DNA of 15,734 nucleotides from the IMG/VR virus record IMGVR_UViG_2645727991_000015, positions 1 through 15,734 of that record. The stretch is one strand, 5' to 3'. The notes beneath the pieces were generated by a model. The model saw only the letters and a list, made by a program, of their open reading frames with translations. It was not told where the DNA came from and searched no databases. Each line of letters begins with the position of its first letter. The first letter of the stretch is position 1. Position numbers and translations under genes: made by a program. This DNA is from a virus (lineage: Duplodnaviria > Heunggongvirae > Uroviricota > Caudoviricetes). Positions 4,079-12,707 of the stretch are shown piece after piece.

Positions 4079-5176
4079 ATGAAAAAATTAACAGTGGCAA
4101 TTTCTGCTGTAGCTGCATCAGTACTGATGGCGATGTCTGCTCAGGCAGCTGAAATTTATAATAAAGACAGTAACAAGCTGGATCTGTACGGGAAAGTTAA
4201 TGCTAAGCACTACTTCTCCTCTAATGATGCAGATGATGGTGATACTACTTATGCCCGTCTTGGCTTCAAAGGTGAAACCCAAATCAACGATCAACTGACT
4301 GGTTTCGGTCAGTGGGAATATGAATTCAAAGGCAACCGCGCTGAATCTCAAGGTTCCTCCAAAGATAAAACCCGTCTTGCCTTCGCTGGCCTGAAATTCG
4401 GTGACTACGGCTCCATCGATTACGGCCGTAACTACGGTGTAGCATACGACATCGGTGCGTGGACTGACGTTCTGCCAGAATTCGGTGGCGATACCTGGAC
4501 CCAAACAGATGTGTTCATGACTGGTCGCACCACTGGTGTAGCAACCTATCGTAACAACGACTTCTTTGGTCTGGTTGATGGTCTGAACTTTGCTGCTCAG
4601 TACCAAGGCAAAAACGATCGTAGCGATTTCGATAACTACACCGAAGGTAACGGTGATGGCTTCGGTTTCTCTGCTACCTATGAATACGAAGGATTCGGTA
4701 TCGGTGCAACTTATGCGAAATCTGATCGTACCGACACTCAAGTTAATGCAGGGAAAGTTCTTCCTGAAGTATTTGCTTCCGGTAAAAATGCAGAAGTTTG
4801 GGCCGCAGGTCTGAAATATGACGCTAACAACATTTACCTGGCCACTACCTATTCTGAAACCCAGAATATGACTGTATTTGCTGATCACTTCGTTGCTAAT
4901 AAAGCTCAAAACTTCGAAGCTGTTGCACAATATCAGTTCGATTTCGGTCTGCGTCCATCCGTTGCTTACCTGCAATCTAAAGGTAAGGATCTTGGAGTAT
5001 GGGGCGATCAGGACTTAGTCAAATATGTTGATGTAGGTGCAACCTATTACTTCAACAAAAATATGTCTACTTTCGTTGATTACAAAATCAACCTGCTTGA
5101 CAAAAATGACTTCACTAAAGCACTCGGTGTAAGCACTGATGACATCGTTGCTGTAGGTCTGGTTTACCAGTTCTAA
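4079..5176 (+). CDS. nmpC: Outer-membrane general porin, OmpC/NmpC (Lc) family, prophage-encoded moron
   Basis: 365 aa with a signal peptide ([25 protein letters not shown]), Gly/Tyr/Asp-rich beta-strand repeats and the C-terminal ...VGLVYQF ending in Phe, typical of enterobacterial 16-strand porins. Its position between Q and the holin on the opposite strand matches nmpC in DLP12-type prophages. Strong RBS (aaaagggctcacgATG). Confidence 0.88.
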
Positions 5177-5834: not shown

Positions 5835-5975
5835 TCATACTCCTGCTCCTGTCAGGGTTTTGGCGTAATTCTTCAGTATTCGGTAATCGGTCAAAACAGA
5901 ACCGGGGGAACGATATAAGCGCAGACGCCCCCAGCGGTGGCGAAGAAGTTCTGCCATATTAAACTCAAACATCAT
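5835..5975 (-). CDS. ylcG: Small nin-region protein YlcG-like
   Basis: 46-codon [49 protein letters not shown] found by manual translation (below the track size cutoff). Its start overlaps the rusA stop in an ATGA arrangement; same size and position as ylcG in DLP12. Confidence 0.6.
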
Positions 5976-6334
5976 TCATTCCCCATTTCGGTGATGGTCA
6001 GTTCCAGCCTCCCACCTTTGGTAACAGGCATCTTCACAACGCGGTAATCAACGACCTGAGCATCATCCAGCCAGAAACCTGCTTTAGTGAGTGCGTCAAA
6101 AGCGGCTTTTTGCAGATTATCCAGGTCACGGCGACGGAGATCCGGCATGTGGCACTCAATGCGGATTTTCACAGGCATAGCCAGGCCGATATCCAGCATT
6201 GCGTTTTTAATGATTCGGGCGACGTTATCGCGGTATGCCTGCACCTCTGCGCTGACGTGCGTGCGCCCGCGATTATGGCGGTAATAGCGATTATTGCTCG
6301 GAGGCCAGGGTAATGTGATGCTGTAGGTATTCAC
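5972..6334 (-). CDS. rusA: Holliday junction resolvase RusA
   Basis: 120 aa [93 protein letters not shown]... matches RusA by recall. Confidence 0.92.
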
Positions 6335-6621
6335 GCCTTAATAACCCCCTCTTTCAGCCAGATAACCTGTGTTCTCGCCATACCTTCCAGCGCGCATTCT
6401 TTTGCATATGCAGCATCGACAAAATGTGTGCGGCGGTCGATTTCGTCGTGGCAGGCAGAACATGCAATGGTGGCAATCAGGTCTGGCGGTTTGGTACCGG
6501 TGCCGCACAATCCAGTCAGCCGGATATGTGCCAGTACAGACGTTTCAGGGTTGCCATTACATACGCCAGGGATTCTTACCTGGCATTCCCGACCACGCGC
6601 TGCTTTTCTCAAATCAGCCAT
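6331..6621 (-). CDS. ybcO: YbcO-like nin-region protein (putative nuclease, cysteine-rich)
   Basis: [64 protein letters not shown]... (96 aa from the ATG at 6621, which overlaps the ninE stop; the track ORF extends upstream in frame). Matches DLP12 YbcO by recall. Confidence 0.85.
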
Positions 6622-6784
6622 GACTCCTCCTTGCTGCCAGTCGCAACCATTTTTTATCAACCAGGCTGGCGGTATACCCGAGCAGTGTTGGTATTTCGGA
6701 TGGCTTCAGCTCAGGTTTACGCTTACGACGATTTGGTACTCTGTAGATGTGTCCGTTCATGACACGAATAAGCGGTGTAGCCAT
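6614..6784 (-). CDS. ninE: NinE protein
   Basis: Manual translation gives 56 aa [56 protein letters not shown], matching lambda/DLP12 NinE by recall. Start overlaps the ybcN stop (TAATG) and the stop overlaps the ybcO start. Confidence 0.85.
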   Translation of the reverse strand: MATPLIRVMNGHIYRVPNRRKRKPELKPSEIPTLLGYTASLVDKKWLRLAARRSHG

Positions 6785-7239
6785 TACGCCTCCTGCTTGT
6801 CGCGCAGCAGCTGGAACTCGCAGCTCTGCGGAATAGTCAGGTGGCAGCCAATATTCATCGCCCAGGCTTCAACCTTACACAGGAAGACATACATCTCTCC
6901 GGTATCGAGATCGGAGGTATGACGTAATGACTGAATGGTGGTGATTTCACCGGTTACGACATCAACCAGTTCTTTGGTTTCATAACCGAGATAAGTGTGT
7001 TTGAGAGCATCTTTTACCCAAGCTGGAGTGGCGAACGTTTTACCCCTGCTGATGAGGTATTCACTGATTTCGCTGTACCACATGTGGCTGAGTGCATTCT
7101 GGGAAAGACTGCGTCTCTCTCGCCACGGTTTAAGCACCATGCGAAAGCATTTGCCTTCCTCCAGATAAGGCTGGATCTGCTGGCCGATAGCGGTGAAGTT
7201 GCCGCGATGTAATTTGATGCCGTCTTGTGAGAGGTTCAC
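6784..7239 (-). CDS. ybcN: YbcN-like nin-region protein
   Basis: 151 aa (M)[57 protein letters not shown]...; GTG start at 7239 with GGAGG RBS upstream. Matches DLP12 YbcN by recall. Confidence 0.85.
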
Positions 7240-7423
7240 GCTTCACCTCCGCAGAGGTCAAACGCTAGATGCAAAGAATTGCAGGTGCATTTCTGCATCT
7301 GTGAAGGGAGAAGAGAGTTTGGATTGTATGTGCGCATAAACGTCCCCGTTTAGCGCAGAAGTCACCGGAGTTGTTCAGGCTCCGATGACATGATTATGGC
7401 GGGTTGATAACGAAAAATCAAAA

Positions 7424-7621: not shown

Positions 7622-8257
7622 TTACGGCACAAATGAATCTATAGCATCAAGCAACTCATTCACATTCGTATAACACCCAAGAAGAAATGGTCTATTAGAA
7701 TGAGGAGGAGCTGCATTTAAACTTTGTTTATTTAGTGCCTTCGCTCTTTGTCTGGCATTAGGAATACCAAGTCTAATTTTCTTATACAACGTAGCATCGG
7801 CTTTATTATAATCCTTTATACCCACTGATAGTAAATCTTTTTTCAAAGTAGAGTTTTTCTTTAGATCATCAAAACTTGAGTAAGGTGTATTCTTAAATGC
7901 AAAGTGTTGTAAAATCCACAATTCAAAACAAACATTTGACAACGCAATATTAATATTGTTTGCATGGGCTAAATCCCATGCTTCATGGTGTAATGTGTGT
8001 GGGTATTTTGTGACAGCCTCTCTATCATATACAACCCAAAATTCATCATCATCCGATGTATCACCACTTTCCTTGTGTTTAATTGCAGCCTTTACTAAGG
8101 CTATTGGTGTGTTATATTTTATATCAGGGATATGTATAACTTTTGCTTTCTCACTAGCAAATTCATCGATATAACCCTGCAAGTACATAGGTTCTGTTTT
8201 AGACCCTTCGCAAAAAATATGCATTCGTTTCTCTAATTTTCTCACGTTTTTTGCCAT
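7622..8257 (-). CDS. RloB-like protein (AbiLii-like; putative effector/partner of the upstream ATPase)
   Basis: 211 aa with N-terminal motif ...HIFCEGSKTEPMYLQGYI..., which I recognise as the conserved CEGxxTEPxY signature of the RloB family (recall, not searched). Strong RBS AAGGTGA; separated by 6 nt from the upstream ATPase gene; AT-rich codon usage unlike the flanking phage genes. Confidence 0.65.
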   Translation of the reverse strand: MAKNVRKLEKRMHIFCEGSKTEPMYLQGYIDEFASEKAKVIHIPDIKYNTPIALVKAAIKHKESGDTSDDDEFWVVYDREAVTKYPHTLHHEAWDLAHANNINIALSNVCFELWILQHFAFKNTPYSSFDDLKKNSTLKKDLLSVGIKDYNKADATLYKKIRLGIPNARQRAKALNKQSLNAAPPHSNRPFLLGCYTNVNELLDAIDSFVP

Positions 8258-8263
8258 GATCTA

Positions 8264-9604
8264 TCACCTTAAATCTTCTGGAATATCATCGATGTTACCA
8301 AATACTGTTAAATCAGTATCTTCAGGTTCACCACCTGTTACCTCAATGATAAAATCCTTTATTTTCATATAGTTAATTGATGGGACGCCACCAAAACGCC
8401 CTTCATCATACCACTTGTTAAAAGGTGAGTTAGCCTTAACCTTTTCTTTATCAAACTCATCTAAACTATAAACTTCGGTTACACCTTTTTTCTTTTCAGT
8501 AAACCAAATCTGATCTCTTCTCATATTTTCTGATTTCATCAACTCAATGTTATGAGTTGTAAATATGAGCTGAGAGCCTACTTTATTAACCTCACTATCG
8601 TTAAACAGTCTGATTAAAAGTGCAGCCAAATGTGGATGCATGCTGTGGTCTATTTCATCGATAATTAACACTCGATTTATTAAAAGACCAGAAATTAGGG
8701 CAGGTGTTAATTCAAATAACCTACGAGTTCCTGCTGACTCATTTTCAATATCTATATCAGCACATTCTCCACCCTCCATGTCATGCTCAAATTTAAAGCT
8801 AAATCGATTTTCAGCCAAAATTCTTCGTTTCATATCTTCCGGCATTTCATCAGGTAGCTTAATATCTAGTTCTTTATTTTCGACAATCCTTAGTTGGTTT
8901 ATACCCGTATCAACCAATGATAAGAAGTTACCGGAAAAACGAATAAGCATGTCTCTAAATTTCTCATCCTCAAGATGAAGAGCATTAAAACTTGATTCCA
9001 TTCCAATAGGACAAATTAACTGCGAAAAGTACTCATATACTTCCTTAGCAATCTCTGGAGCCTCAGCGACAGTGCCGATCTTTGATAGATAAGAGTTATT
9101 TTTAGAAAATGGAATTTTCTTTACTCCACCTTTGAATTGCGCCCCAAATTTAATATTCTCCCAACCATTATTCACACGATAGAACAAATTCGATGGCTGC
9201 TTGGAGTAATAACAATCTAAACTCTCCAATATAATTTCTTTTTGAAGATAATGTATTTTATATTTAAATTTCAAATCATTGATCACAAAGTCAATTTCAA
9301 ACTTTACTGGCTTTGAGATTGTTTTTTGACAAAGAGAATATGGTTCATAACAAGGGATATCCTCGCCATCTTTCAACGAAAAGCTATCCTCAACAAGATA
9401 ATTTAATGCAGAAAACACCTTTAGAAGGTTTGACTTCCCTGAAGCATTAGGACCATAAATTCCAACGGTACGTACAACCCGCTCATTGCTTTTGGGAAGA
9501 ACAAGCAAATTATCGCTTAAGTGGTTACTTGTTGAACTACGCAGATCAAAGTTAACCTCTTCTTTGATCGACCTAAAATTCTCAACTTTTAAGGAAATTA
9601 TCAT
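8264..9604 (-). CDS. ABC-type / AAA_21-like ATPase (AbiLi-like; putative anti-phage abortive-infection ATPase)
   Basis: 446 aa with Walker A GPNASGKSN, Walker B VLIIDEIDHSMHP and an H-loop-like LIFTTHN. AT-rich; forms a tight two-gene operon with the RloB-like gene. Confidence 0.75.
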   Translation of the reverse strand: MIISLKVENFRSIKEEVNFDLRSSTSNHLSDNLLVLPKSNERVVRTVGIYGPNASGKSNLLKVFSALNYLVEDSFSLKDGEDIPCYEPYSLCQKTISKPVKFEIDFVINDLKFKYKIHYLQKEIILESLDCYYSKQPSNLFYRVNNGWENIKFGAQFKGGVKKIPFSKNNSYLSKIGTVAEAPEIAKEVYEYFSQLICPIGMESSFNALHLEDEKFRDMLIRFSGNFLSLVDTGINQLRIVENKELDIKLPDEMPEDMKRRILAENRFSFKFEHDMEGGECADIDIENESAGTRRLFELTPALISGLLINRVLIIDEIDHSMHPHLAALLIRLFNDSEVNKVGSQLIFTTHNIELMKSENMRRDQIWFTEKKKGVTEVYSLDEFDKEKVKANSPFNKWYDEGRFGGVPSINYMKIKDFIIEVTGGEPEDTDLTVFGNIDDIPEDLR

Positions 9605-10161: not shown

Positions 10162-10451
10162 GTCTTAGCTCTCCCATATACCGCCAATACCCGTTTCATC
10201 GCGGCACTCTGGCGACACTCCTTAAAAATCAGATTCGTGCTCACCTTTCCTTCCCGTTCTTCTCTGGTAGCGAACCGGTAATACACCGTTCGCCAGACCT
10301 TACCATCAACGACCAGGATTCCTGCCCGCGCCATTTTAGCCGCAGCCTGATTTATGCTGGTTACGGTTGCGCCTGTTACCGCGGCAACGTCCTGCGCACA
10401 GAAGTTCTTATGAGTCCCCAGGTAATGAATAATTGCCTCTTTGCCCGTCAT
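10158..10451 (-). CDS. ren: Ren (Rex-exclusion resistance protein)
   Basis: 97 aa MTGKEAIIHYLGTHKNFCAQDVAAVTGATVTSINQAAAKMARAGILVVDGKVWRTVYYRFATREEREGK... matches lambda Ren by recall; immediately downstream of P. Confidence 0.88.
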   Translation of the reverse strand: MTGKEAIIHYLGTHKNFCAQDVAAVTGATVTSINQAAAKMARAGILVVDGKVWRTVYYRFATREEREGKVSTNLIFKECRQSAAMKRVLAVYGRAKT

Positions 10452-11149
10452 ACACTTACTCCTTTCAGCCCAAACTTAGCTTTGATTTCTGCGATCTTCG
10501 CCAGAGCCTGTGCACGATTTAGAGGTCTACCGCCCATGACAGGAAGTTGTTTTACTGGTTCAGGTATAGCCTCACCACGGTTAATTCGTGCGGCCATACA
10601 GGACAGTTCATCGGCAGCCTTGCGCCGTAATTCCGCGTCAGTCAACGCATTGGCCCGCATGTTCTGATACAGGTTGGTAACCAGCCAGTAGTGCGCGTTT
10701 GATTTCCACGGATAAGACTCTGCATCCGGATACAGGCCACGCTTCCGGCAATACTCGTAAACCATATCAACCAGCTCGCTGACGTTTGGCAGCCCGGCGT
10801 TAACAGATGCTTCTTCCCGGCACCAGGCGACAAACTGCCCGGGTGATGGCAGGAATGGTCGATTCTGCCGACGGGCTACGCGCATTCCAGCGTTAACCTG
10901 TTCCATTGTGGTGATCCCGTTTTCCCGGAAAGCCAGAACCCACTGGCGGCGGATTTCGTTCAGTTCATTCTGGTCACGGTTAGCCAGGCTCGCCGGGAAA
11001 GTTGCCAGTAACTGGCTGAACACACCGTTGATGATCTGCGCTACCTGCTGTACCTGCGGCTTTTCGTCGTACTGTTCCGGCATATTGTTGGCGATCCGGC
11101 GCATCTGCTCACGGTCAAAGTTAACCATCTGTGCGGCGATGTTTTTCAT
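10448..11149 (-). CDS. P: Replication protein P (DnaB helicase loader)
   Basis: 233 aa MKNIAAQMVNFDREQMRRIANNMPEQYDEKPQVQQVAQIINGVFSQLLATFPASLANRDQNE... is near-identical to lambda P by recall; overlaps the O stop. Confidence 0.93.
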   Translation of the reverse strand: MKNIAAQMVNFDREQMRRIANNMPEQYDEKPQVQQVAQIINGVFSQLLATFPASLANRDQNELNEIRRQWVLAFRENGITTMEQVNAGMRVARRQNRPFLPSPGQFVAWCREEASVNAGLPNVSELVDMVYEYCRKRGLYPDAESYPWKSNAHYWLVTNLYQNMRANALTDAELRRKAADELSCMAARINRGEAIPEPVKQLPVMGGRPLNRAQALAKIAEIKAKFGLKGVSV

Positions 11150-12075
11150 AAATCCACCCCGTAAATCCAGTCAGTGTTCGTCAGGTCGAGTTTTGGTTTG
11201 CCGGCTGTCACGCCAGCCTGTTGCTTGTTTCGGTTGATTTCGAGCTGGGTCCACTTGTCGCGGAGTTTGGCCGGACTCAGCACGTTACCGGACCAGAAGT
11301 TGTCCTGGCATGCCCAGCGGAACAGCACGCACATGTCGCGGTGGTTACGTCCGTCACGTTCACGCATCAGGCGGATATCGTTAGCCCACCCTGCAAAATT
11401 CGGTTTTCTGGCTGATGGCGCGATGGTCTTCACCATGTCAAACATCCACTCTGCGGCGGTCAGGTCTTCTGCTGTCCCCCACTTGCTGCCACTCTGAATT
11501 GCAGCATCCGGTTTCACCACAGGAAGGTCGTTTTCTGGCTGGTCAGAGGATTCGCCAGAATTCTCGGACGAAAAAGGTTTTATATTGTCTTTTGTTAGTT
11601 TGTCTTTTGTGTTTACCTGATTCGGGTAAACGCCTTTACCTGATTTGGGTAAACTTTTCTTACCTGATTCAGGTAAATTTACCTCTTTCAGGTAAACTTT
11701 ATTTTTCTTACCTGATTCGGGTAATGTTGACCATTCACTGACCACATTATTAATGCCGATATTTCGCCCGCTCTGAATAAGAATCCCACGCTTTACCAGA
11801 ACGCTTTTTGCAGCAGAACACTTGTGCGGCAATATCCCGGTCAATTCGGAAAGTTGCTCGTTGCTCACCCAATCCAGTCTTTTATTAAAGCCATATGTTT
11901 TGCGCATGACAGCCAGGAAGACCAGAAGCTGGTGCTGTGTTAATCCGGCCAGCATCACAGCTTCCAGCAACTCATTTGCAATGCGCGTATAACCATCATC
12001 GAGATCTGCCACGCGCGGCTCCTTTTGTGCCGCATCCGGCACTGGAAAATTGAATATCTCAGCAGTGTTTGCCAT
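11146..12075 (-). CDS. O: Replication initiator O (lambda-like C-terminal domain, non-lambda N-terminal iteron-binding domain)
   Basis: From the ATG at 12075 (RBS GGGAG): MANTAEIFNFPVPDAAQKEPRVADLDDGYTRIANELLEAV... aligns with lambda O MTNTAKILNF...VADLDDGY..., and the C-terminal half (SSENSGESSDQPENDL...WIYGVDL) is near-identical to lambda O by recall. An alternative in-frame start at 12165 (the track ORF) overlaps the upstream gene stop in an ATGA arrangement. Confidence 0.88.
   Translation of the reverse strand: MANTAEIFNFPVPDAAQKEPRVADLDDGYTRIANELLEAVMLAGLTQHQLLVFLAVMRKTYGFNKRLDWVSNEQLSELTGILPHKCSAAKSVLVKRGILIQSGRNIGINNVVSEWSTLPESGKKNKVYLKEVNLPESGKKSLPKSGKGVYPNQVNTKDKLTKDNIKPFSSENSGESSDQPENDLPVVKPDAAIQSGSKWGTAEDLTAAEWMFDMVKTIAPSARKPNFAGWANDIRLMRERDGRNHRDMCVLFRWACQDNFWSGNVLSPAKLRDKWTQLEINRNKQQAGVTAGKPKLDLTNTDWIYGVDL
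11575..11724. repeat. ori: Replication origin inside O: AT-rich tract (11575..11612) plus five 17-bp iterons TTACCTGATTCGGGTAA (11613..11629, 11636..11652, 11660..11676, 11679..11695, 11708..11724)
   Basis: Five direct repeats with the same 17-mer core and inverted ends (TTACC...GGTAA) read directly from the sequence, spaced 19-29 bp start to start, with an AT-rich segment on the transcription-downstream side. Same organisation as lambda ori but a different iteron sequence. Confidence 0.8.
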
Positions 12076-12161
12076 AATTACTCCCGCAATGAGTGTGTTA
12101 CGATTTGCACCTGAAAGTCGGTTCTGTTCCAGCAGACCGGCTTTCGCCATTTCTGAACCTG

Positions 12162-12707
12162 TCATATTGCCCCCAGCATGGTGGTGACCATCGCCATCAG
12201 TGGACCAGCCAAATCCGGGTCCACACGAAACATCGACACAATGCCTTCACTCATCTCCTTCAGTTTCTGGTGGCGTGGTGCGTTGAGAATGACAGCCTGT
12301 TTTGCCTCACTGAGTTCCTTTTCCATTTCAGCCAGCCGAGCCATGAAGCTATCCTGCTCAACCAGGTGGCCGCGATATTTCAGCGGTAGTACTGCCAGAA
12401 TTGCTGGAGTCAGTTCACGCACGTTATTTCGGTATTTTTCAGAATCGAATTTGTTATCGAGAAAGCGGAACAGCTTCTGGCGTGCACGACTGACATCATC
12501 AGGAAAATCGATAGTGCCGCCGCCCTGTGCTCGATACTAATTCACAATGAGTGCGGCAACGACATCCTGATTATCTACAGCCGACCAGGCGCGGATGGCA
12601 TCACGGATTTTTTCGTGGCCTGGCACCTGTTTTATTTGAGAACGATTTATCACCGCAGTCGGGATAAATCCGCTAGTCTGTTGGTATGTAAGTGGTTGCA
12701 TAGTCAT
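12162..12707 (-). pseudogene. cII-position gene (YdaT-like by recall) interrupted by a single in-frame TAG at 12537..12539
   Basis: A 56-codon ORF (MTMQPLTYQQTSGFIPTAVINRSQIKQVPGHEKIRDAIRAWSAVDNQDVVAALIVN, stop TAG) and the track ORF 12162..12422 are in the same frame; the only stop between them is that TAG. Read-through would give about 181 aa (...VN*YRAQGGGTIDFPDD...LTPAILAVLPLKYRGHL...). Confidence 0.55.

Follow-up and report, generated by a model that had tools for sequence, protein, structure and literature searches.

A predicted theta-replication origin with five non-lambda iterons in the O gene of an Escherichia coli lambdoid prophage

Introduction

It has been textbook knowledge since 1977–1981 that the origin lies within the O gene, that the N-terminal part of O determines specificity while its C-terminal part forms the interface with P, and that hybrid phages can cross over inside O. 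The concept of N-terminal specificity and a C-terminal P interface reportedly goes back to Furth and Yates in 1978 and Moore et al. in 1979. Phage 82 has its own iteron type, with more iterons than lambda, together with a lambda-like right half of O and a lambda-like P. Furth and Yates are said to have described in 1978 lambda-82 hybrids with crossovers inside O, enabled by this lambda-like right half of O/P, and the classical ori82 studies are reportedly those of Moore et al. in 1979 and 1981 and of Grosschedl and Hobom in 1979.

The mechanism of the lambda origin and the roles of the O domains have been described (PMC5043065, PMC6022878, PMC7466680, PMC3349717). The lambda repeats, to which those discussed here are homologous, are O-binding sites (PMC5043065, PMC7466680), and the C-terminal half of lambda O is assigned in the lambda literature as the P-interaction domain (PMC6022878). 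The extra iterons present in Stx phages are weakly bound, yet wild-type E. coli cannot be transformed by a P27-derived plasmid that lacks them (PMC7466680).

Here we describe a 15.7-kb stretch of viral DNA (the window; the whole 15,734 nucleotides of the sequence analysed), which belongs to a lambdoid E. coli prophage and in which an earlier note, made from the sequence, placed an origin with non-lambda iterons inside a mosaic O gene. We conclude that the locus is very probably the theta-replication origin of this prophage, with the layout of ori-lambda and a different initiator/iteron specificity.

Results

Organization of the replication module

The best genomic matches to the window are 97–98% identical over 80–86% of its length. 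By their RefSeq names these matches carry nohD, iss, rzpD, rrrD, essD, a porin, quuD, rusA, ybcO, ninE and ybcN, and then an AAA ATPase/RloB pair, replication protein P, a 'replication protein', a YdaT-domain gene, a cro-like regulator and an S24 repressor. The repressor, cro-like, YdaT-like, O and P genes lie in this order on one strand, which fits the layout of an early pR operon; a consensus promoter scan identified no pR-like site on the strand of the replication genes. The YdaT-like gene occupies the place immediately upstream of O where lambda has cII, and has a premature in-frame stop. An Rfam scan found no RNA families in the window.

The O gene (minus strand, 11146–12075) codes for a replication initiator of 309 aa, starting at the lambda-homologous ATG at 12075, ahead of which lies a GGGAG Shine-Dalgarno sequence. 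The reading frame is open over 11146–12165, and the PGAP/RefSeq-style start is at 12165, 90 nt upstream of 12075. In 21 of 21 distinct upstream sequences the frame of this 30-codon extension is open, and the variable sites among them (two in phase 1, five in phase 2 and four in phase 3) have no third-position bias. Residues 21–115 of O (minus strand, 11731–12015) correspond to the Phage_rep_O N-terminal domain, predicted to bind the origin, and match Pfam PF04492 over the full model (1–95 of 95; E = 3.6e-34, 117.6 bits with a cut-off of 28.7). There is no PDB sequence match for the O protein or for a 6-member profile, and a single-sequence AlphaFold2 model of the N-domain (pLDDT 44.6) has a helix pattern that is compatible with a winged helix and is too poor for more.

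The C-terminal half of O (minus strand, 11149–11570) is of the lambda type, and the P gene (minus strand, 10448–11149), which overlaps the O stop codon, codes for a lambda-type DnaB helicase loader of 233 aa that is 97% identical to lambda P and matches Pfam Phage_lambda_P with E = 6.9e-62. The O and P reading frames are both intact. A plus-strand ORF at 11415–11741 (108 aa) was considered and rejected as a gene, being antisense to the well-supported O and without support of its own.

Five iterons and an AT-rich box within the O gene

A 17-bp near-palindrome, TTACCYGAWTCRGGTAA, is present in five copies that span 11613–11724 when up to 3 mismatches are allowed across the whole window, and at the same threshold it has no further match elsewhere in the 15.7 kb. 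The chance expectation for this family is 0.08, and five matches were reached in none of 200 shuffles; a separate repeat search of the window returned the same 17-mer family. The earlier note's count of five copies is thus borne out, as is its placement of the repeats and an AT-rich tract inside the O coding sequence on the minus strand.

Every iteron is a near-perfect dyad of the form TTACC-N7-GGTAA. In the sense of O they start at nt 352, 381, 400, 424 and 447, with spacings of 29, 19, 24 and 23 bp. The part of the gene that codes for Phage_rep_O ends at O nt 345, and the array (O nt 352–463) begins 6 nt later and ends exactly at the AT box. Iteron 1, the 5′-most in the sense of O and the one that is extra relative to lambda, has the sequence TTACCCGAATCAGGTAA (minus strand, 11708–11724), starts 29 bp before iteron 2, and matches a 30-nt insertion relative to lambda. 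On the same strand follow iteron 2 (TTACCTGAAAGAGGTAA; 11679–11695), iteron 3, which is a perfect dyad (TTACCTGAATCAGGTAA; 11660–11676), iteron 4 (TTACCCAAATCAGGTAA; 11636–11652) and iteron 5 (again TTACCCGAATCAGGTAA; 11613–11629), which adjoins the AT-rich box.

The iterons are read in two codon phases and give unrelated peptides. Three are in phase 1, with iterons 1 and 3 encoding LPESGK and iteron 4 encoding LPKSGK, and two are in phase 3, with iteron 2 encoding VYLKEVN and iteron 5 encoding VYPNQVN. The repetitive peptide ascribed to the array is accordingly found at the three phase-1 iterons, as LP(E/K)SGK, and not at the two phase-3 iterons.

The AT-rich tract, the presumed DNA-unwinding element, extends over 11566–11612 (minus strand); it was correctly placed next to the repeats in the earlier note, although the start given there (11575) trims it slightly. 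Its GC content is 29.8%, and that of its core (11571–11612) is 23.8%, compared to 44.8% for the whole window. The tract holds a box that is conserved family-wide, ACACAAAAGACAAACTAACAAAAGACAATA, and the AT-rich region containing the ACAAAAGAC box (GC 0.24–0.30) directly adjoins the last iteron.

Comparison with the lambda origin

We compared the locus to the ori/O/P module of lambda (NC_001416, 38686–40283). Residues 1–116 of O are 48% identical to lambda O, residues 117–168, which are coded by the iterons and the AT box, can scarcely be aligned with it, and residues 169–309 match it at 139 of 141 positions (98.6%). DNA identity to lambda is 0.52–0.54 in the N-domain, 0.39 in the iterons, 0.79 in the AT box and 0.92–0.96 from the AT box to the stop codon, with 96% over the C-terminal half of O.

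In lambda and in the window alike, dyad-symmetric iterons lie in O just after the Phage_rep_O domain, and the N-domain, iterons, AT box, C-terminal half and P of the window follow the lambda order. Lambda has four annotated 18-bp iterons with the consensus TCCCTCAAAACGAGGGA, whereas the window has five 17-mers (TTACCCGAATCAGGTAA). The lambda iterons are spaced at 20, 24 and 23 bp and the last four here at 19, 24 and 23 bp, such that these four superimpose on the four of lambda and the extra iteron at the left adds 30 nt, or 10 aa. Directly after the last iteron the same 12-mer, ACACAAAAGACA, is present in both. These comparisons uphold the earlier description of an ori-lambda organization that differs from lambda in repeat sequence, in repeat number (five rather than four) and in the N-terminal domain of O (48% identity over residues 1–116), with a lambda-like C-terminal half of O (98.6%) and P (97%). 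The ori-lambda specificity group, which includes lambda, 434, ES18 and the Stx phages and is characterized by TCCCTCAAAACGAGGGA together with a lambda-type N-domain, does not include the window, because its iteron is TTACCCGAATCAGGTAA and its N-domain is 48% identical to that of lambda.

Constraint on the iterons as DNA

Conservation of the array was evaluated by comparison with Klebsiella phage ST11-VIM1phi8.2 (MK448234). Iteron 5 matches at 17 of 17 positions and iterons 2, 3 and 4 at 16 of 17 each, so that iterons 2–5 together match at 65 of 68 positions (96%); the figure for the spacers is 16 of 27 positions, and DNA identity in the N-domain is 78% overall and 58% at third codon positions. 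Iteron 1 has the lowest conservation of the five (12 of 17), and because of this poor conservation in the Klebsiella lineage it may be a weak or accessory site.

A second comparison used 65 distinct alleles, derived from 74 related IMG/VR loci and the window. Polymorphism beyond singletons affects 3 of 85 sites in the iterons versus 5 of 27 in the spacers (Fisher p = 0.019) and versus 63 of 256 among third codon positions elsewhere (p = 3e-6). When only third codon positions inside the iterons are considered, the within-allele polymorphism signal is marginal (Mann-Whitney p = 0.066, n = 27), and the comparison with the Klebsiella phage is the stronger evidence. Because the iterons use two codon phases and are conserved above both the spacers and third codon positions, the repeats are under selection as DNA and not as peptide, and the repetitive peptide is a by-product of the DNA repeat.

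Co-variation with the N-domain and exchange at the AT box

In a comparison set of 14 O/gp18-type genes, repeats are present in the same place and end at the same AT box in all 14, and the repeat sequence tracks the type of N-domain. The window and the Klebsiella phage share TTACC..GGTAA (five copies), P22 has related repeats with GGTAAA half-sites, and HK97, Yersinia 21.09, SEN34 and Erwinia 49 have TTAGC..GCTAA. The repeat type is TGTCTC..GAGACA in mEpX1 and TGTCAC..GTGACA in mEp043; lambda, ES18, Oslo and P27 have TCCCTC..GAGGGA in four, four, four and six copies, respectively, and phi80 has four copies of TTCCCG..CGGGAA. The earlier note had suggested comparing the iterons and N-domain with those of phi80 and HK-type phages, and both carry repeats that differ from those of the window. 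A short segment of O varies with the repeat type, being LPHKCSAAK in the window, APTKCSTAK in P22, HHTH(V)C(A/T)AK in the HK97 group and PVKRCNEAK in lambda, and this segment may be the recognition helix.

The C-terminal half of O and the helicase-loader partner reassort freely around the shared AT-rich box ACACAAAAGACA. Thus ES18 has a lambda-type N-domain with a T7 gp4-like primase-helicase, SEN34 has an HK97-type N-domain and iterons joined to a lambda-type C-terminus and P, and ST11-VIM1phi8.2 has a window-type N-domain and iterons with an unrelated C-terminus and a DnaC-like ATPase. In pairwise comparisons the similarity between O genes switches at the shared AT box, and the box itself (ACAAAAGAC) is 79–94% identical to that of lambda, SEN34, the Klebsiella phage, P22 and HK97 however similar the flanks are; the box is therefore the patch of homology for module exchange as well as the likely unwinding element. 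The proposal of a replication-specificity mosaic generated by modular recombination, in one direction or the other, is supported, with the exchange seen directly in ST11-VIM1phi8.2 and SEN34.

Distribution and relationship to phage 82

The N-domain and iteron DNA of the window is present in 2297 of 5426 complete E. coli genomes (42%), in up to three places per genome (at least 80% coverage, with nearly all matches at least 95% identical), and the lambda-type equivalent is rarer (1324 genomes). The exact sequence of the 309-aa O is found in 321 contigs, and the cluster to which it belongs at 90% identity, 'replication protein (O)', has 7825 members. Sixteen named phage records also contain the module, at about 98% identity; the propagation hosts listed in such records include E. 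coli C and K-12 MG1655, and we take these laboratory hosts of related phages as a sign that the module works. All five iterons are at identical positions in 75 of the 77 complete related IMG/VR loci, and the combination of window-type N-domain and iterons with a lambda-type C-terminus and P is the dominant form, being present in 74 of the 77. In one related locus (L056) an iteron is missing and the reading frame is shifted, and another (L011) has a stop inside the array. In two inspected records of this prophage type O is annotated, and the iterons and origin are unannotated.

The nin region of the window is 95.7% identical to the phage 82 record X92588, which covers the nin region only. In view of this identity and of the phage 82 traits outlined above, the window origin may be the classical phage 82 origin (ori82). 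In the collections searched X92588 alone surfaced for phage 82, with no O or ori sequence, and a full-text search of accessible papers found none that prints the ori82 sequence or the window 17-mer. The lambda misc_recomb features at 39157/39158 and 39165/39166 have no notes naming hybrids. With or without identity to ori82, this is a known kind of element and a known and widely sequenced allele.

Discussion

Proposed mechanism and alternative explanations

The reading of this locus as an origin is based on its anatomy, the homology of both halves of O and of P, the selection at the DNA level, the co-variation of N-domain and iterons, and the reassortment at the AT box. In the mechanism that we propose, leftward (minus-strand) early transcription would lead to expression of O and P, and dimers of the O N-terminal domain would then bind to the five dyad-symmetric 17-bp iterons within the O gene. 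The resulting nucleoprotein complex would stress and open the adjacent AT-rich box, and the lambda-type C-terminal half of O would recruit P-DnaB such that the host helicase is loaded. We infer the binding of O to the iterons, the unwinding and the firing of the present copy by analogy with the lambda origin.

The alternative that survives best, which we consider unlikely without dismissing it, is that this copy has a genuine origin architecture and is now a relic: the prophage would be defective (cryptic), the iterons would survive only by recent descent and no firing would occur. The in-frame stop in the YdaT-like gene just upstream of O is consistent with this, as are a late region like that of the cryptic prophage DLP12 (nohD, essD, rrrD, rzpD, quuD, rusA and ybcN/O, by the RefSeq names of the best match) and the decay of related loci, L056 by iteron loss and frameshift and L011 by a stop in the array. 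However, the reading frames of O (309 aa) and P (233 aa) are undamaged, and all five iterons have the majority sequence of 71–74 of 75 alleles; the window stops short of the prophage ends and so gives no measure of completeness.

It is much less probable that the array mainly titrates or handcuffs O for copy control, or excludes superinfecting phages of like replication type by serving as a decoy, with initiation being secondary. Such a role would agree with the inhibition of lambda replication by ectopic copies of ori-lambda or of iterons (PMC3349717, PMC4488673) and with the spread of this iteron type, which 42% of complete E. coli genomes carry, in up to three places each, but the array is in the canonical position, adjoining the conserved AT box and upstream of P, and no second candidate origin is seen in the replication module. 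Moreover, exclusion would be a by-product of origin function and not an alternative to it.

Least plausible is that the repeats have no function as DNA and are just a low-complexity coding repeat that flexibly connects the two domains of O; the earlier note had named a low-complexity coding repeat without origin function as a finding that would overturn its reading. The Lys/Ser/Gly/Pro-rich character of this stretch between two folded domains, and the ability of lambda O to complement after in-frame deletions in the neighbouring AT-rich part (indicating a dispensable, linker-like peptide; PMC6022878), are outweighed by a dyad-symmetric 17-mer that gives two unrelated peptides in its two codon phases, by 96% conservation of iterons 2–5 versus about 59% for spacers and synonymous sites, by the joint shift of iteron type and N-domain type across the family, and by the role of the homologous lambda repeats as O-binding sites (PMC5043065, PMC7466680).

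Implications

The preferred reading, an origin of ori-lambda layout with its own specificity, carries little weight as a discovery, as the layout is textbook and the exact allele is already known from cultured phages and from thousands of genomes in public collections. Its value is in annotation, where a rep_origin feature covering the five iterons and the AT box could be added to a very common prophage type. Replication specificity could reasonably be studied with this allele as a model, given that it outnumbers the lambda type in E. coli, and the pairing of N-domain type with iteron type is a ready data set for the Phage_rep_O recognition code.

More speculatively, and with considerable doubt on our part, the sharing of one iteron type by about 42% of genomes, sometimes in two or three places, could link prophages into a network of replication cross-talk or exclusion. 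If this were so, O supplied by a single phage, on induction or infection, would activate all resident origins of its type, and these resident origins could also titrate O. The fifth iteron, accessory and leftmost, might set how strongly the origin depends on transcriptional activation, as has been reported for the extra iterons of Stx phages.

Relationship to known systems

The annotated gp15 binding sites of phi80 are TTCCCGAAAACGGGAA, and the phi80 N-domain is 37.8% identical to that of the window, which lies outside the phi80 specificity group. The Stx phages 933W and P27 are similar to the window in having a lambda-type C-terminus and P, and have six iterons and an O protein that is 13 aa longer, but they retain the lambda iteron sequence and the lambda N-domain, and the window differs from them in specificity. 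Gene 18 of P22 has an N-domain about 58–65% identical to that of the window (58% over residues 1–116 of O), which is closer than that of lambda and less close than that of the Klebsiella phage, and it shares the GGTAAA half-site and the same AT box; its repeats are less regular, however, its C-terminus is unrelated, and its partner is the DnaB-type helicase gp12.

Klebsiella phage ST11-VIM1phi8.2 has an N-domain 82% identical to that of the window, five iterons at the same positions and the same AT box, and differs in that its C-terminal half is unrelated (33–36% DNA identity) and a DnaC-like AAA ATPase is present in place of lambda P. Finally, Escherichia phages Lambda_4C10, 4A7, 1W, 3W, Perceval, Turner and the PhiR series ('Bievrevirus' and relatives) have O genes that are 97.4–98.4% identical to that of the window over their whole length, all five iterons included. 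These phages and thousands of E. coli prophages of this kind have the same P, and most share the phage-82-like nin/Q region, such that there is essentially no difference between them and the locus described here.

An AT-rich box beside the iterons

Directly after the last iteron of the O gene lies an AT-rich box of the form ACACAAAAGACA-N(2-8)-ACAAAAGA (positions 11571-11604, minus strand). When the O gene of the window was compared with those of the loci L003, L005-L008, and L090-L097, 13 of the 14 O/gp18-type genes were found to keep this box immediately past their last iteron, phi80 being the sole exception, and among these genes conservation of the box is independent both of the type of iteron and of the partner gene. 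The position of the box is also that at which the similarity between the mosaics switches.

Rare degraded versions of the same origin are present among the IMG/VR relatives, at approximately nucleotides 400-450 of the O gene. L056 has lost one iteron, with four left, and a frameshift generates a 296-residue ORF with a foreign tail, and in L011 the iteron array is interrupted by a stop codon.

The O start and the gene upstream

Two starts are in use for O annotation, and the public databases contain both forms. The start homologous to that of lambda O is the ATG at 12075, which is preceded by GGGAG and gives a product of 309 residues; the RefSeq/PGAP-style start is located 30 codons upstream (alternative N-terminal extension at 12076-12165, minus strand), giving 339 residues, and its ATG overlaps the stop codon of the upstream gene within an ATGA. 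The reading frame of the extension is always open, and third-position bias is absent among its variable sites.

The upstream gene (12162-12707, minus strand) occupies the cII position and is not cII but a YdaT-toxin-like gene (Pfam PF06254, E = 2.8e-19). Its reading frame in the window is interrupted by a stop codon after some 58 codons (…ALIVN*YRAQ…), and it is probably a pseudogene here; the counterpart in the best genomic match is an intact CDS of 540 nt.

Antisense to O, on the plus strand at 12050-12078, is a site that resembles a promoter, TTGAAT-17-CATAAT with a TG upstream, whose -10 element and the start codon of O overlap. No obvious oop-like terminator was seen downstream, and the region has no match in Rfam. 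The position of the site matches that of lambda pO, the promoter of oop RNA (PMC3349717, PMC6022878).

Defence, late, and nin-region genes

A two-gene anti-phage defence pair (7622-9604, minus strand) is placed between the nin region and the ren-like and early genes, and encodes a 446-residue AAA ATPase (PADLOC AbiLi, E = 1.8e-83) and a 211-residue RloB-family protein (AbiLii, E = 8.7e-21). The late region contains genes for an Iss (increased serum survival) lipoprotein (about 1962-2303) and an OmpC/NmpC-like porin (4079-5176), both on the plus strand; these are lysogenic-conversion-type cargo genes, identified by the names that RefSeq gives them in the genomic match with 97% identity, with approximate coordinates taken from the ORF list.

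The nin region (ybcN/orf151, ninE, ybcO, and rusA; 5845-7300, minus strand) is common to most phages that share the O allele of the window, and is 95.7% identical to that in the classical phage 82 record (X92588).
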